Shown: positions 5,018-60,589 of the stretch, piece after piece
Layout of the letters: every line of letters begins with the position of its first letter
How positions within the stretch are numbered: the stretch's first letter is position 1
Assembly (NCBI GenBank): GCA_017537175.1
Contig: JAFYLH010000012.1
Location: forward strand, 65,375 to 129,374
Direction of reading: 5' to 3'
Length of the DNA stretch: 64,000 bases
From: Clostridia bacterium
GTDB taxonomy: Bacteria > Bacillota > Clostridia > Oscillospirales > CAG-272
Made by a program: the position numbers and the translations under genes
The notes under the pieces: generated by a model
The model's database searches: none
What the model saw: only the letters and a program-made list of their open reading frames with translations
Told to the model about the DNA's origin: nothing

Positions 5018-5029
5018 TATAATGAAGAA

Positions 5030-5056
5030 AACAGCAGGGGTAACCCTGCTGTTTTC
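5030..5056 (+). terminator. Rho-independent terminator after the GH18 gene
   Basis: CAGCAGGG-GTAA-CCCTGCTG stem followed by TTTT. Confidence 0.7.
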
Positions 5057-5062
5057 AACCAT

Positions 5063-5163
5063 AATTCCGCACTCCGTGTTCCGACCGGAGGGAGTGCCAA
5101 GAGGCTTTGCCTCAGGCCGCATTCCGCATTCCTCTCATTTTCCGTTCATTATTTCCGCTTGAC
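5063..5163. repeat. Heptad-repeat mosaic element, partial copy C: TTCCGCA-type heptads flanking a 36-bp core (5081-5116)
   Basis: AATTCCGCACTCCGTGTT-[core]-CCGCATTCCGCATTCCTCTCATTTTCCG...; the core is 33/36 identical to the reverse complement of 60479-60514. Confidence 0.7.
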
Positions 5164-10831: not shown

Positions 10832-10920
10832 TTAGGAGTTAGGAGTTAGGAGTTAATGAAGATTTTTGTTTCTTTATGAAACAAAAATCCACATTAATTT
10901 TGCATTTTGCATTTTGCATT
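10832..10920 (+). repeat. Heptad-repeat palindromic element, copy A: (TTAGGAG)x3 - TTAATGAAG - 12-bp hairpin - CACATTAA - (TTTTGCA)x3
   Basis: Read directly; heptads at 10832-10852 and 10898-10918, stem 10861-10872/10878-10889; same architecture as 60451-60589. Confidence 0.8.
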
Positions 10921-10937
10921 CTCCGAAGGAGGTATTT

Positions 10938-11810
10938 ATGCCGTCAAATCAGATACAGTGGTTTCCCGGCCATATGGCCAAGACCCGCCGACTGATAACA
11001 GAAAATCTTTCGGCAGTTGATATAGTAATAGAAATTCTTGATGCCCGTATTCCCGAAAGCTCCAAGAACCCCGAGATTATGAGACTTTGCAAGGACAAGC
11101 CCATGCTTACTCTTCTTTCAAAGTCCTCTCTTGCAGACCCTGCGGCCTCTGATAAATGGAGAGCATATTATCAGAAGAACGACCGTCACTGTATGTTTAT
11201 CGACAGCGTAACAGGTGCAGGTGTCAAGGATATCGGGGACGCGGTGCGTGAGGTTCTCAAGGAAAAGGTAGAAAAATACGAAAGCAAGGGTATGCAGGGT
11301 AGAGCCTTAAAGGCGATGATCGTTGGTATACCCAATGTTGGCAAGTCCTCTCTTATCAACCGTCTTGCGGGACAGAAAAAGGCAAGGGTAGAGGATCGTC
11401 CCGGCGTTACAATGACAAAGCAATGGGTAACCACCAATGTGGGACTTGAGCTTCTTGATATGCCCGGAGTTCTCTGGCCCAAGTTTGAGGACGAATATGT
11501 AGGCGAGAATTTAGCTATCACGGGAGCTATCAAGGATCAGGTAATGGATCTTGACCGTATCTCCTGCGCTCTTGTTTCAAGACTGCGTAAGAGATATCCC
11601 GAGCTTCTTTGCGAGAGATACAAATTAGGTGATATTTCTCAGTATGACGACCTTGAGGACTGGGAGCTTGCTGAGGTCATCGGCAGAAAGAGAGGCTTCC
11701 TTATCTCGGGCGGAGAGGTAAGCTGGGAGAGACTGTCAAACATTCTTCTTGACGAGTTCAGAGGGGCAAAGATAGGAAGAATAACCTTAGAATTACCCGG
11801 AGAGAGATAA
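10938..11810 (+). CDS. rbgA: Ribosome biogenesis GTPase A (YlqF/RbgA)
   Basis: MPSNQIQWFPGHMAKTRR start typical of RbgA; GIPNVGKSSLINRL G1 motif; AAGGAGG RBS before ATG 10938. Confidence 0.9.
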   Translation: MPSNQIQWFPGHMAKTRRLITENLSAVDIVIEILDARIPESSKNPEIMRLCKDKPMLTLLSKSSLADPAASDKWRAYYQKNDRHCMFIDSVTGAGVKDIGDAVREVLKEKVEKYESKGMQGRALKAMIVGIPNVGKSSLINRLAGQKKARVEDRPGVTMTKQWVTTNVGLELLDMPGVLWPKFEDEYVGENLAITGAIKDQVMDLDRISCALVSRLRKRYPELLCERYKLGDISQYDDLEDWELAEVIGRKRGFLISGGEVSWERLSNILLDEFRGAKIGRITLELPGER

Positions 11811-19375: not shown

Positions 19376-19410
19376 AAATGTCCTGTGACACGATGTATCA
19401 CAGGACATTA
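19376..19410. repeat. Left copy of a 35-bp direct repeat that is itself a terminator hairpin (clpX terminator)
   Basis: AAATGTCCTGTGACACGATGTATCACAGGACATTA; 34/35 identical to 19743-19777. Confidence 0.85.
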
Positions 19411-19742: not shown

Positions 19743-19777
19743 AAATGTCCTGTGACACGATGTGTCACAGGACATTA
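19743..19777. repeat. Right copy of the 35-bp hairpin direct repeat; overlaps the 3' end of the 19765-21039 gene
   Basis: AAATGTCCTGTGACACGATGTGTCACAGGACATTA; perfect 13-bp stem. Confidence 0.85.
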
Positions 19778-21039
19778 TTATATTTATTTATCGCCGCACA
19801 GCATATGGCATTGATCTTGGGTGAGCAGTCCTTTTCCTGCCATATACCCACATCATTTCTTTTTGACATAAGTCTTTGATATACGGTATGTCTTTGCTCA
19901 AGACCGTAGACAGAGAGGGCATATAACAAAAGCGCGGTCATTTCTGTATCAAGCACTTTTTTCGACAGTCCTTTCAGTATGCCTGGTATATCATCAAACA
20001 TAGGAATATCAAGCCCTAAATATATCATTACAAGCAGGGGCAGATCTGACAGCTGTTCGGTGTTGTCGGGGATATTGGAGGGCAGATCTGCATCCTCAAA
20101 GCAGTCTGTACAGGCATAGGTGGAGTGGCGTGTGCGTTCAAGCCATACCCCGTTTTGCTTGCAATAAGGACATAAGCCGAATTTAAATCTTGCAAGACGG
20201 AGGTTTTCTCTGCGCTTGCGGGAATTAAGAGCCGCCTTGTCACCGCGGACAAAGTTTTCGCGATAGAGCTTTTTACATCTGTCGGCATATTTTCCGCCGC
20301 TTCGGATGTATAAAAGTGTATCTATAGCCGAGCCGTCCTCGCTGTCCTTACAGCCAAGCGCGCCGTGTACTATACTCTCATCATCAAAGGTGATAATGGG
20401 AAAATTGTGCTTTATTCCCAAAAGCTTAAGGGAATAGAGATACAAGGGATCCTTTTCGTAGCCTATAGAGGTATACACGGTATCAAGAGCATTGGAAAGC
20501 TCGGTTTTTTCTACCGGCTTGCTTTCGTATACATCTTCAGACATCCTTGCGGCGTTTCTCAGCAGAGCCGCAGGATCCTCCCCCTGACATATTATTATTT
20601 CGTGACAGCCCTCGGGTACTGTAAGAATACTGTTGATGCTGTTATAGTACATTTCACCCGACAGGATAATAAACCCGATCTTTGTACCCCTTGAATACCG
20701 GATAACAGGTAAGCGCTGCTTACCCACGGTATATTTACGGTGATATATACTTTGCTTGTCTGCATCAACAGAAAATTTAAGCTCTGTTAAGGTATTTATA
20801 TTTCTTATCAGAACGCCTTTGTCTGCAAAGAAGCGGTCCTCTGTGCAAAACAGACTTACAAGAGTGTCATTACGGTATGTAAGACAGCGTGTAAGCCAGC
20901 TGCCCTCTTTTCCCAGGAACTGTAGCCTTGTAAAGGAGTTATCCGGTATGCCGAGCAGTCTGAGTGACATAAGCTCCGAGCTTATGTCAAAGCCGTCATA
21001 AAGCAGATATGCACTGCGGTGCAGCATATTACCACTCAT
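19765..21039 (-). CDS. Hypothetical protein, 424 aa, with an internal CPYC...CTDC zinc-ribbon-like motif
   Basis: Long ORF whose start overlaps the trmL stop by 11 nt; I recognise no family. Confidence 0.6.
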   Translation of the reverse strand: MSGNMLHRSAYLLYDGFDISSELMSLRLLGIPDNSFTRLQFLGKEGSWLTRCLTYRNDTLVSLFCTEDRFFADKGVLIRNINTLTELKFSVDADKQSIYHRKYTVGKQRLPVIRYSRGTKIGFIILSGEMYYNSINSILTVPEGCHEIIICQGEDPAALLRNAARMSEDVYESKPVEKTELSNALDTVYTSIGYEKDPLYLYSLKLLGIKHNFPIITFDDESIVHGALGCKDSEDGSAIDTLLYIRSGGKYADRCKKLYRENFVRGDKAALNSRKRRENLRLARFKFGLCPYCKQNGVWLERTRHSTYACTDCFEDADLPSNIPDNTEQLSDLPLLVMIYLGLDIPMFDDIPGILKGLSKKVLDTEMTALLLYALSVYGLEQRHTVYQRLMSKRNDVGIWQEKDCSPKINAICCAAINKYNNVL

Positions 21040-29686: not shown

Positions 29687-30331
29687 TTATGCTTTAAGCT
29701 CCTGTACGGTCTTGGGTATATCGCTTGAGCCGAATACCGCAGAGCCTGCAACGATAACATTTGCGCCTGCTTCCTTTACTATGTGGGCGTTCTTGGGTGA
29801 AACCCCGCCGTCAACCTCAAGCTCTATCTCGCGGCCGATTTCCTTGATCATAGCATCGCAGGCCTTGATATTTTCAACGGTAGCATCTATAAAGGACTGA
29901 CCGCCAAAGCCGGGCTCAACAGTCATAACCAGGATAAGGTCAACACGGTCAAGATAGGGCTTAAGTATTTCGGGCTTGGTGTTGGGCTTGATGGACAATC
30001 CCACTTTTTTGCCGTTAGCCTTGATACGGTCAATTGCCGCATTTACATCAAAGGTGCTTTCTACATGAATAGTGATAAGATCTGCGCCTGCCTTTGCAAA
30101 ATCATCGATATAACGGATAGGGTCGGTTATCATAAGATGAACATCAAAGAAAAGCTCTGAATACTTGCGGATAGCCTTGACAACGCAGGGACCTAAAGTA
30201 ATGTTAGGCACAAATATGCCGTCCATAACATCGATATGCAGATACTCTACACCTGCATCCTCTACCTTTTTGATCTCGCTCTGCAGATTTGCAAAATCGC
30301 AGGCAAGAATCGAGGGTGAAACCTTGATCAT
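29687..30331 (-). CDS. rpe: Ribulose-phosphate 3-epimerase
   Basis: MIKVSPSILACDFANL...HIDVMDG...conserved Rpe sequence; GGAGGAAA RBS. Confidence 0.95.
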   Translation of the reverse strand: MIKVSPSILACDFANLQSEIKKVEDAGVEYLHIDVMDGIFVPNITLGPCVVKAIRKYSELFFDVHLMITDPIRYIDDFAKAGADLITIHVESTFDVNAAIDRIKANGKKVGLSIKPNTKPEILKPYLDRVDLILVMTVEPGFGGQSFIDATVENIKACDAMIKEIGREIELEVDGGVSPKNAHIVKEAGANVIVAGSAVFGSSDIPKTVQELKA

Positions 30332-30500
30332 TTTAATTTCCTCCGAAATTTATTGAAATGTATTTTTGACATAATTAAAAATATCTCATAAGATATTAAA
30401 GGAGCGATAAAGCCCGGGTACGAGGTGTTCAGCCGACTTAAAAAGAAACGGAAGTGCAACCAAACTCTGTTCAGCTTGTACTCTTTATATAAAATTCCCG

Positions 30501-30557
30501 GAAACCGCTTCGGCGGTTTTCTTCATTAATTCCGCACTCCGCACTCCGCATTCCGCA
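30501..30557 (-). repeat. Heptad-repeat element, half copy D: (GCGGART)x4 - TAATGAAG - terminator hairpin, read on the minus strand; supplies the ispF C-terminus, stop codon and terminator
   Basis: Plus strand: GAAACCGC-TTCG-GCGGTTTT CTTCATTAA (TTCCGCA/CTCCGCA)x4; heptads at 30530-30557. Confidence 0.75.
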
Positions 30558-31023
30558 CTATCAGTGCCACTGCGTGGGCACTGATCCCCTCCAGCCTTCC
30601 GGTAAAGCCAAGCTTTTCCTCGGTTGTGGCCTTGATGCTTACACGGGAGATATCAATGCCTAAGGCATCGGCTATGTTTTTTCTCATACCGTCGATATAA
30701 GGAGCTAATTTGGGCTTCTGTGCTATGACGGTTGCATCTATGTTTGAGACCTTGTAGTCTCCCAAAAGAGATACACAGTGCTTAAGCAATACTATACTGT
30801 CAGCGCCTTTGTATTTAGGGTCTGTGTCGGGAAAATGCTTTCCTATATCCCCAAGAGCCAATGCGCCCAGCAGGGCATCGCTTACCGCGTGGCAAAGCAC
30901 ATCTGCATCGCTGTGACCTAAAAGACCCATTTCGTATTCTATTTCTGTTCCGCCTAAAATAAGCTTTCTGTTTTCGGCAAAGCGGTGAACATCATATCCG
31001 TGGCCGATGCGTATATCCGTCAT
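30526..31023 (-). CDS. ispF: 2-C-methyl-D-erythritol 2,4-cyclodiphosphate synthase
   Basis: [10 protein letters not shown]...[11 protein letters not shown]...conserved IspF; the last 9 residues RNAECGVRN are encoded by the heptad repeat. Confidence 0.95.
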
Positions 31024-48762: not shown

Positions 48763-48891
48763 AAATTTCAACCTCCCTATTTCAGTATATGCAAAAATTC
48801 GTAATTGGGAATTAAATGAAGAAAACTGTTGCCTTAAAGCAACAGTTTTCAACTACAATTATTCATCATTCATTATTCATTACACTTGTGC

Positions 48892-60450: not shown

Positions 60451-60589
60451 AGTTAGGAGTTAGGAGTGAGGAGTTAGGCCCGAGGCAAAGCCTCTTGGCA
60501 CTTCCTTCGGTCGGAGTTAATGAAGATTTTTGTTGCTTTGGGCAACAAAAATCCACCTTAATTCCGCATTCCGCATTCTGCACTCCGCA
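60451..60589 (+). repeat. Heptad-repeat palindromic element, copy B: (AGTTAGG-type)x4 - 36-bp core - AGTTAATGAAG - 12-bp hairpin - CACCTTAA - (TTCCGCA-type)x4
   Basis: Heptads 60451-60478 and 60562-60589; core 60479-60514; stem 60525-60536/60542-60553. Confidence 0.8.

Follow-up and report, generated by a model that had tools for sequence, protein, structure and literature searches.

What kind of element is the heptad-repeat palindrome that fills the spacer between lepB and rbgA in a Clostridia bacterium of the Oscillospirales lineage CAG-272? We analysed a stretch of 64,000 nucleotides of contig JAFYLH010000012.1 (the window), in which this element, copy A, follows the lepB stop codon and a second one, copy B, lies between rhaB and rhaA. 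An earlier note on the same DNA had read copy A as a rod of roughly 40 bp that forms in sense-strand RNA only. Our analysis leads to a different answer: copy A is, on balance, probably a member of a lineage-specific, fast-evolving family of mosaic, roughly palindromic intergenic DNA repeats, in which heptanucleotide tandem arrays surround a small hairpin.

Copy A is laid out at 10832-10920 as that note had described, with matching coordinates and sequence (Table 1). Its left array runs into TTAATGAA before the stem begins, CACATTAA joins the stem to the right array, and 3' of the latter follows TTCTCCGAAGGAGG, which contains the Shine-Dalgarno sequence of rbgA; the rbgA gene opens with the ATG at 10938. 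According to Tandem Repeats Finder, both arrays match at 100% with a perfect period of 7. The claim that copy B follows the same plan holds as well, with the start at 60453 and an extra module of 37 nt, which sits between the left array and the core. Both copies lie within operons, in sense orientation.

The copies share the core. Its 18-mer TTAATGAAGATTTTTGTT has four matches at up to 3 mismatches in the window, where 0.11 would be expected. In the core stem, seven basal pairs do not vary and three upper pairs covary, with changes in both partners; the swap of T10871-A10879 for G60535-C60543 noted earlier is real, and compensatory changes keep the stem paired. The hairpin signature ATTTTTG...CAAAAAT occurs two to three times per 20-64 kb, with a variable stem top and loop, and is confined to such elements and to relatives with an RbgA identity of at least 93%. 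The conserved feature is the central hairpin, not the arms. The 15 loci listed when metagenomes were scanned for the core pattern AATGAAGATTTTTGTTNCTTT were all chance matches in unrelated sequence.

An assembly artefact was ruled out: identical elements are found in independent samples and with independent assemblers (copy B is identical in L201, a second sample of the same strain), and the arrays are also present in long-read metagenome-assembled genomes (MAGs). Logan short-read contigs from three samples stop exactly at the start of the copy A hairpin (10861) and within the extra module (5101), breaks that are consistent with a multicopy status of those pieces in the genome. In both copies, an ATGAAG conserved past the AGGAG-rich left array opens a mini open reading frame (ORF) over the hairpin (product MKIFVSL* at 10856-10879 of copy A, and MKIFVALGNKNPP* at 60520-60561 of copy B). 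These mini-ORFs are probably incidental.

Relatives, found via their RbgA homologues, have the same gene order at this junction, and the spacer itself turns out to be filled, rebuilt or empty among them (Table 1). This comparison, which the earlier note had proposed as a check, went largely against a roughly 40-bp rod as a conserved functional feature, by the note's own test of refutation: the closest ortholog lacks the left array, and other close relatives lack the element or carry other sequence in its place. All filled spacers share only their 3' end, which reads CTCC-GAA(A)-GGAG in the window, L139 and L231 and TTCC-TGAAA-GGAG in L142 and L143. A hairpin of 4-5 bp over the rbgA Shine-Dalgarno sequence accompanies every filled spacer, and the empty spacers of L232 and L145 are without it.

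Presence and absence also vary between near-identical strains. Copy B is missing in L148, in which RhaA is 99% identical, the flanking DNA 92-94% identical and the spacer 28 nt long. This spacer is a clean empty site and copy B a clean indel of ~150 nt; no target-site duplication was recognisable at the filled and empty sites, where the flanking sequence is AT-rich and of low complexity. Three RhaA homologues that ranked at the top, P0121-P0123 (557-594 aa, from ENA assemblies), were left out, as they carry internal duplications of ~150-170 residues that are most likely assembly artefacts.

At the convergent clpX-spoU junction, the heptads and their unit numbers drift from relative to relative. 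The arms read TGCGGAA/TTTTGCA in L139, TGCAGAA/TTCTGCA in L142 and TGCAAAA/TTTTGCA in L143, with differing unit numbers; both arrays begin 0-1 nt past their respective stop codons, and the arms stand 115-180 nt apart with two independent hairpins between them. Arm covariation, as the L142 and L143 pairs might suggest, was rejected: it comes down to one 50% coincidence and parallel GC-to-AT drift, and L139 breaks it. The window has no such arrays at clpX, but other repeated hairpins and an extra gene instead. A perfect 35-nt hairpin, AATGTCCTGTGACAC...GTGTCACAGGACATT, occurs there twice (19376-19410 and 19743-19777, 97% identical) and flanks ~330 nt of hairpin-rich sequence 3' of clpX, where the relatives have heptad arrays. 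The extra minus-strand gene past these hairpins (19765-21039) is present in L231 and not in L139, L142 or L143.

Copies A and B are two of five heptad loci in the 64 kb. The third lies 3' of a terminator-like hairpin at 5026-5060, and hairpins of this kind precede the heptads at 30503-30519 and 48827-48849 as well. At the fourth locus, (TGCGGAR)x4 on the minus strand codes for the last nine residues of IspF, RNAECGVRN; ispF spans 30526-31023 on this strand, the Pfam YgbB model covers residues 4-155 of the 165, and the stop codon falls in the TTAA just past the array. The unit TTCATTA of the fifth locus is a 7-mer of the TTCATTAA hairpin flank at the fourth. Three of the five loci are without an inverted arm pair (a single arm at one, arrays of the same sense at another, only a degenerate left arm at the third), so the building unit is a hairpin followed 3' by a pyrimidine-rich heptad array, to which a purine-rich array may be added as a mirror on the 5' side, and the double-armed copies A and B are its full form. 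Tandem Repeats Finder places arrays of period 7, with 3.4-4.4 copies, at 10832, 10897, 30531, 48858, 60451 and 60561; of arrays with about three or more units, the window holds 4-6 at period 7 versus 0-2 at each of the periods 5, 6, 8 and 9. No more copies were found in ~14 kb of the genome added beyond the window ends.

The extra module of copy B is itself a dispersed piece, as its 18-nt centre has an exact inverted recurrence at 5094-5111, within the third heptad locus. The ~37-nt hairpin-forming module (centre GGCAAAGCCTCTTGGCAC) thus stands within heptad arrays in opposite orientations, at 5086-5116 (minus) and 60480-60516 (plus). The ortholog of the third locus, the array after a large surface protein gene, is uninterrupted in L142 (TTCTGCA CTTTGCA CTCTGCA TTATGCA), and therefore the module was inserted into the array in the lineage of the window. 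In this the module resembles the very small dispersed repeats of Nostoc, which likewise insert into arrays of heptamers.

Table 1. Heptad-array features of the window and the lepB-rbgA spacers of its relatives
Feature	Position	Strand	Description	Basis
lepB stop codon	10829-10831	+	TAA	read from sequence
Copy A, left array	10832-10852	+	purine-rich, (TTAGGAG)x3; begins at first base after lepB stop	Tandem Repeats Finder
Copy A, core	10853-10897	+	TTAATG/CATTAA outer helix and central hairpin; signature ATTTTTG...CAAAAAT	
Copy A, central hairpin	10861-10889	+	12-bp stem GATTTTTGTTTC / GAAACAAAAATC, 5-nt loop TTTAT	
Copy A, right array	10898-10918	+	pyrimidine-rich, (TTTTGCA)x3	Tandem Repeats Finder
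Small hairpin	10919-10932	+	partial heptad TTCTCC + GAA + GGAGG; CTCC pairs with rbgA Shine-Dalgarno sequence	fold
Copy B	60453-60589	+	between rhaB and rhaA; plan of copy A plus 37-nt extra module	
Copy B, left array	60453-60479	+	TTAGGAG TTAGGAG TGAGGAG TTAGGC	Tandem Repeats Finder
Copy B, extra module	60480-60516	+	CCGAGGCAAAGCCTCTTGGCAC...GGTCGGAG; small dispersed hairpin-forming insert	recurrence and fold
Copy B, core hairpin	60517-60561	+	ATTTTTGTTGC TTTGG GCAACAAAAAT, flanks TTAATGAAG / CCACCTTAA	
Copy B, right array	60562-60589	+	TTCCGCA TTCCGCA TTCTGCA CTCCGCA	Tandem Repeats Finder
Third heptad locus	5065-5132	+	TTCCGCA CTCCGTG TTCCGAC, inverted extra module, CCGCAT TCCGCAT TCC (CCGCATTCCGCATTCC)	
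Fourth heptad locus	30526-30557	-	hairpin, TTCATTAA and (YTCCGCA)x4 read on + strand; (TGCGGAR)x4 on - strand	
Fifth heptad locus	48816-48882	+	AATGAAGAAAAC-hairpin-GTTTTCAAC, then ATTATTC ATCATTC ATTATTC = (TTCATTA)n	
Spacer, L139-141 (RbgA 96%)			shorter core hairpin and TTATGCA TTCTTCA TTTTGCA TTTTGCA; no left array	
Spacer, L142 / L143 (RbgA 94% / 93%)			GC-rich hairpins unrelated to copy A	
Spacer, L231 (RbgA 92%)			TGA, (TGCAGAA)x3 (TGAAGAA)x2, different A/T-flanked hairpin, (TTCCGAA/TTCCGCA)x4	
Spacer, L232 (RbgA 94%)			empty, 12 nt	
Spacer, L145 (RbgA 87%)			empty, 10 nt	

A scan of one genome per species with the pattern TTCCGCAYTCCGCAYTCCGCA placed these arrays in a far wider class. 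At least 119 YTCCGCA/TGCGGAR loci were obtained from Acidobacteriota, Verrucomicrobiota, Planctomycetota, Chloroflexota, Gemmatimonadota and Nitrospirota, as well as from Bacteroidia, Clostridia, Cyanobacteria, Desulfobacterota and one archaeal MAG. At least 52 viral contigs carry a YTCCGCA/TGCGGAR array and at least 25 carry (TTAGGAG)x3. These wider loci are MAG or viral contigs, on which genes were approximated by long ORFs from stop to stop, and all counts that follow are among the matches listed. Period 7 accounts for 260 arrays, versus 4-22 for periods 5, 6, 8 and 9 and none for 10 and 11; about 90 of the 260 are built of unrelated heptads. The hexamer TGCGGA plus one free base is kept across phyla and phages.

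Solitary arrays are common in this class (72 of 121). An inverted partner lies upstream in about a quarter of the arrays and downstream in none, and the order (TGCGGAN)n...(NTCCGCA)n was found 35 times, the reverse order never. The spacers between the nearest arm pairs are unrelated in sequence and measure 12 to ~105 nt; no target-site duplication was recognisable at the 35 inverted pairs. The arms do not covary: in 32 inverted pairs, the variable seventh base is Watson-Crick paired between arms in 44 of 84 unit pairs, versus 35 expected if the arms were independent. TTAGGAG arrays elsewhere are partnered by CTCCTAA. The combination TTAGGAG/TTYYGCA seen in the window is therefore a hybrid of two heptad types, which explains the regular 2x2 mismatch of UA opposite GC.

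Arrays and inverted pairs also occur in frame inside genes of distant phyla (L010, L024, L036, L063, L076, L102, L116, L118 and L119), in both orientations. Named from the printed translations alone, the hosts are an aminotransferase, PurL (twice), HypF, Mfd, a glucoamylase-like protein, an oxoprolinase, MutL and a U32 peptidase, and the added peptides are of the type AECGMRNAE. Array contigs L023, L036, L054 and L084/L109 were binned as Klebsiella, Bifidobacterium, Akkermansia muciniphila and Campylobacter MAGs; at least L023 is probably mis-binned, because it has the GAGCCTCCTSACGTCGGCTGCT motif in common with the Verrucomicrobiia contigs L033 and L040.

The arrays are, moreover, oriented to stop codons. 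Among arrays that begin within 10 nt past the stop of a long ORF (loci L005-L200), 51 read as (TGCGGAN)n and 8 as (NTCCGCA)n. TTAGGAG arrays, which follow stop codons in viral contigs too, are purine-rich in the sense strand in 10 cases versus 0 when they lie within 12 nt past a stop, and other heptads after stops show a sense-strand purine ratio of 37:16. Six upstream ORFs (TrpE, GlmS, AtpD, an FtsX-type permease, an M16 peptidase and DnaB) were verified as genuine genes with natural C termini. All arrays of the window lineage that adjoin gene ends follow the purine-sense rule (lepB, rhaB, clpX, spoU and ispF). The polarity counts are indicative, with a fair internal control in the same arrays read on two strands, and the polarity shows that some strand-specific, gene-related constraint acts on the arrays. 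A placement of pyrimidine arrays before start codons was ruled out, as there is no orientation bias at these sites (44 versus 39). Neither are the after-stop arrays Shine-Dalgarno mimics in general: TTAGGAG and TGCGGAG do fit such content, but GGAG, GAGG or AGGA occur in only 4 of 53 other heptads.

How does this class relate to repeats already described? The earlier note knew of no family like this one, which holds in so far as no paper on TTCCGCA- or TGCGGAA-type arrays was found in the literature searched; it does not hold for heptanucleotide tandem repeats as such, which have been described, inverted pairs included (PMC4692102, PMC2700814, PMC4679880). In summaries of earlier work, heptanucleotide repeats are given as the over-represented class of long simple-sequence repeats (SSRs) in bacteria, for which slippage is proposed (PMC4679880, PMC4692102). 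Closest are the STRR sequences of heterocystous cyanobacteria and the TTTTGAA/TTCAAAA heptamer repeats of Nostoc PCC 7120 (PMC4692102, PMC4679880, bioRxiv 10.1101/2022.06.06.494920): these short 7-nt tandem arrays too occupy many intergenic sites with several unit types per genome, vary rapidly, have no assigned role and have slippage as their proposed cause. Here, in contrast, the units are TTAGGAG and TGCGGAN/NTCCGCA, the host is a gut/rumen Clostridia-type MAG, the arrays stand around a conserved hairpin, and there is a fixed purine-5'/pyrimidine-3' order together with a stop-codon polarity that we did not find reported in the literature compared. The window arrays have three or more tandem units, an excess of period 7 and dispersed, mostly intergenic and variable sites, as heptanucleotide STRR and long SSRs do. 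That is, the element fits this class on every feature tested.

Heptamer arrays that also form inverted pairs (stem-loops or cruciforms) at intergenic sites are known from GGGAATC of Xanthomonas and from GGACCGG and the MTYCTGA 'class 3 sites' of Geobacter metallireducens, where they are intragenic as well (PMC4692102, PMC2700814). Those were read as G-quadruplex formers or regulator sites, whereas the heptads studied here do not form G-quadruplexes and the central hairpin signature is particular to this lineage. The TAACTGA direct repeats of marine Beggiatoaceae, cyanobacteria and Bacteroidetes, for which a translational role was proposed (PMC4679880), are likewise one intergenic heptamer, oriented to genes, across distant phyla with no evident transfer mechanism; yet they stand mainly just upstream of starts and are almost never inverted, in contrast to arrays that run from stops and often form inverted pairs.

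In organisation, the element resembles REP/BIME mosaics. REP sequences are conserved palindromes of ~35 nt with a GTAG-type tetranucleotide and a RAYT transposase, and their stem-loops can stabilise upstream mRNA. Like REP, BIME and REPIN elements, those of the window are short palindromes in mosaics, placed within operons or after genes and variable in presence between strains (PMC3116915), but their conserved part is the 7+7-bp AT base of the stem, and the arms are tandem heptads. No RAYT (Y1) transposase was found among the long ORFs adjoining the window copies, to which this search was limited. Rickettsia palindromic elements are conserved palindromes of 100-150 nt in one genus that lie in frame in genes. 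With these and with the tandem repeats of Borgs, the present arrays have in common that they stand in frame inside coding genes and add short peptides (RNAECGVRN in ispF; PurL, Mfd, MutL and HypF elsewhere). Borg repeats come in many unit lengths (PMC9879509), and the unit here is always 7 nt, so that insertions are in frame only at certain total lengths.

Taken as a DNA repeat, the element consists of an AT-flanked hairpin (ATTTTTG...CAAAAAT with a variable stem top), 7-nt tandem arrays and occasional small extra hairpin modules. Its 5' side is a purine-rich array (TTAGGAG, TGCGGAA, TGCAGAA or TGCAAAA), usually starting from the stop of the upstream gene, and its 3' side a pyrimidine-rich one (TTCCGCA, TTCTGCA or TTTTGCA). 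The arrays behave as hypermutable heptanucleotide SSRs, with units homogenised within an arm, unit number and sequence shifting between close relatives, arms gained, lost and swapped independently and whole elements coming and going as indels. Replication slippage would expand and homogenise the arrays, and the hairpin-plus-array modules may spread by a copy-and-paste or recombination route. Any effect on RNA would be generic, with the stem-loop in the lepB-rbgA transcript as a possible barrier or site of processing and the terminal CTCC as a possible pairing partner (CTCC/GGAG) of the rbgA Shine-Dalgarno sequence; neither would depend on an extended rod. The sense-only rod of copy A would then be a by-product of a TTAGGAG array beside a TTCCGCA-type array with two C-to-T transitions homogenised over its three units. 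Other loci and other lineages show such drift as well, from TTCCGCA via TTCTGCA to TTTTGCA and from TGCGGAA via TGCAGAA to TGCAAAA. The plus strand of the window holds 91% of the coding sequence and has a positive GC skew, and strand-biased C-to-T change could therefore have given G-U rather than A-C intermediates.

Several points weigh against this explanation. The succession of purine array, hairpin, pyrimidine array and CTCC/GGAG hairpin recurs at lepB-rbgA in three lineages although the sequence turns over, so the architecture could be maintained, and the G-U intermediates (copy A and the clpX locus of L139) are both compatible with sense RNA. Slippage alone explains neither the 35:0 order nor the 51:8 and 10:0 orientation at stop codons, and it leaves the same heptad across distant phyla unexplained; polarity, order and cross-phylum recurrence point to a directional mechanism or to selection on the transcript. 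The spreading step is unproven, as neither a target-site duplication nor a transposase or other mobilising function turned up, and the analysis is based on ~78 kb of this genome plus seven contigs of relatives. The element may act at the RNA level, although not as a conserved rod.

These regularities permit a broader proposal, which we regard as rather unlikely: the window element may be the local form of an undescribed cross-phylum system, in which purine heptads (TGCGGAN, TTAGGAG and others) are laid in sense from stop codons, with an optional pyrimidine mirror downstream and in fixed order, in at least ten bacterial phyla, an archaeal MAG and phage contigs. Its polarity would stem from a role of the transcript at the point where translation ends (such as control of ribosome release, re-initiation, Rho loading or decay) or from a directional, transcription- or translation-coupled writing of 7-nt repeats.

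Rather unlikely, in our estimate, is that the heptads serve as recognition units in single-stranded RNA or DNA, read by a trans-acting factor or by the translation and termination machinery, so that periodicity and orientation matter and no rod is needed. Stop-codon polarity and fixed arm order make it the alternative of greatest interest. A sense purine array at the stop would influence how ribosomes are released or re-initiate, how Rho is loaded or how the mRNA decays, with the pyrimidine array as its pairing antagonist; the after-stop bias at all three kinds of heptad, the invariant chirality of the pairs and the hexamer with its free base would fit, and so would the tendency of different loci in one genome towards a common heptad variant. 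For cold-shock proteins, binding of a single heptamer by each protein is discussed (PMC4679880), and a heptamer-binding partner was proposed in Nostoc (bioRxiv 10.1101/2022.06.06.494920). However, the elements are dispensable between near-identical strains, the heptads drift to TGCAGAA and TGCAAAA and thereby lose GGA/GGAG, Shine-Dalgarno-like content is not general among the heptads after stops, arrays stand in frame inside genes in both orientations, sites upstream of start codons show no bias, and no candidate factor was identified; moreover, genes were approximated by long ORFs.

We consider the rod itself unlikely, that is, the arrays and the central stem pairing as one ~40-bp periodic structure in sense RNA and working as a unit, be it an RNase III or other processing site, a stability element or a protein-binding site. 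Its starting point in folding was borne out. The plus-strand RNA of copy A folds with its arms paired as 5-bp blocks between 2x2 loops and the minus strand with the central stem only, and the mean probability of arm-arm pairing is 0.31 versus 0.003; the arms of copy A thus pair only in the lepB-to-rbgA sense RNA, as had been stated. Copy B pairs better, with G-C pairs, at 0.57 on the plus versus 0.30 on the minus strand. The compensatory change in the central stem, the sense orientation of both double-armed copies within operons and the two cases of G-U rather than A-C intermediates would fit such a rod as well. The complementarity of 5 of 7 positions per heptad was confirmed for both copies (in copy A two Watson-Crick and three G-U pairs, with 2 of 7 on the minus strand), but it does not exceed chance: random heptamers of the window reach 5 of 7 pairs, G-U included, with p=0.076 if the register is fixed and 0.36 if any register is allowed. 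What does exceed chance, unlike arm pairing alone, are the periodic arrays and the shared hairpin.

The strand asymmetry of copy A is real in silico, and the rod is predicted to be weak. On the plus strand, pairing falls from 0.7-0.99 in the inner heptad to ~0.6 in the middle and ~0 in the outer one, and the minimum free energy structure makes up 2% of the ensemble. Helices of 5 bp split by 2x2 loops are a poor RNase III substrate. Together with the missing left arm in the closest ortholog, the lack of arm covariation in the 32 inverted pairs, the frequency of solitary arrays and the wide spacing of the clpX arms around two independent hairpins, this argues against the rod as the functional unit. 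Rfam 15 gave no match in the window at the gathering threshold, and for both copies as well as for 30320-30540 a permissive search returned far-sub-threshold chance matches only (two models of bacterial sRNAs, and eukaryotic microRNA and snoRNA models). Two other roles of the central hairpin were rejected: copy A was not called as an intrinsic terminator by the scan and has its T run on the 5' side of the stem with none after it, and no convincing -35/-10 pair marks a promoter.

A classical miniature inverted-repeat transposable element, with heptad arrays as terminal inverted repeats that hold multiple transposase sites and are mobilised in trans, is very improbable: the 35:0 orientation to element ends, the ~150-nt unit insertion of copy B, the arms and core common to two copies, the multicopy repeats suggested by assembly breaks and the arrays in phages would agree with it, but no target-site duplication is recognisable at copy B or at 30+ other pairs, the spacers are unrelated, the arms vary in unit number and type, many of them stand alone, orthologous loci show arrays that change in place, and no transposase lies next to any window copy.

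A further mosaic in the relatives touches the same signature. Between thrC and a metallophosphatase gene, L139 (14195-14470) and L143 (6880-7130) carry a palindromic mosaic of ~250 nt, which the window and L142 do not have. It comprises four left units (a constant 7-8-mer and a variable mini-hairpin), an ATTTTTG..CAAAAAT core and four mirrored right units. The constant motif differs between the two relatives (ATGAATTG/CAATTCAT versus GTGAAAT/ATTTCAC), yet is complementary between the arms.

For the lepB-rbgA locus, our findings counsel caution against an annotation as regulatory RNA, as the rod is not conserved and the spacer, a hot spot, has been built anew in each close lineage. In practical terms, heptad arrays break short-read assemblies and add peptide tails or inserts to proteins, here to IspF. 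The locus itself is of moderate interest; what deserves further work is the class, with its chirality and its polarity at stop codons. For decades, heptanucleotide arrays have been known as the over-represented class of long repeats in bacteria, without a mechanism; the TTAGGAG and TGCGGAN units, the hairpin-centred layout, the chirality and the polarity at stop codons set the present arrays apart from those described in the literature compared. The TGCGGAN unit common to phyla and phages, the 35:0 order and the 51:8 orientation are regularities that slippage alone does not predict, and they make it testable whether transcription or translation takes part in the writing or the selection of such arrays.

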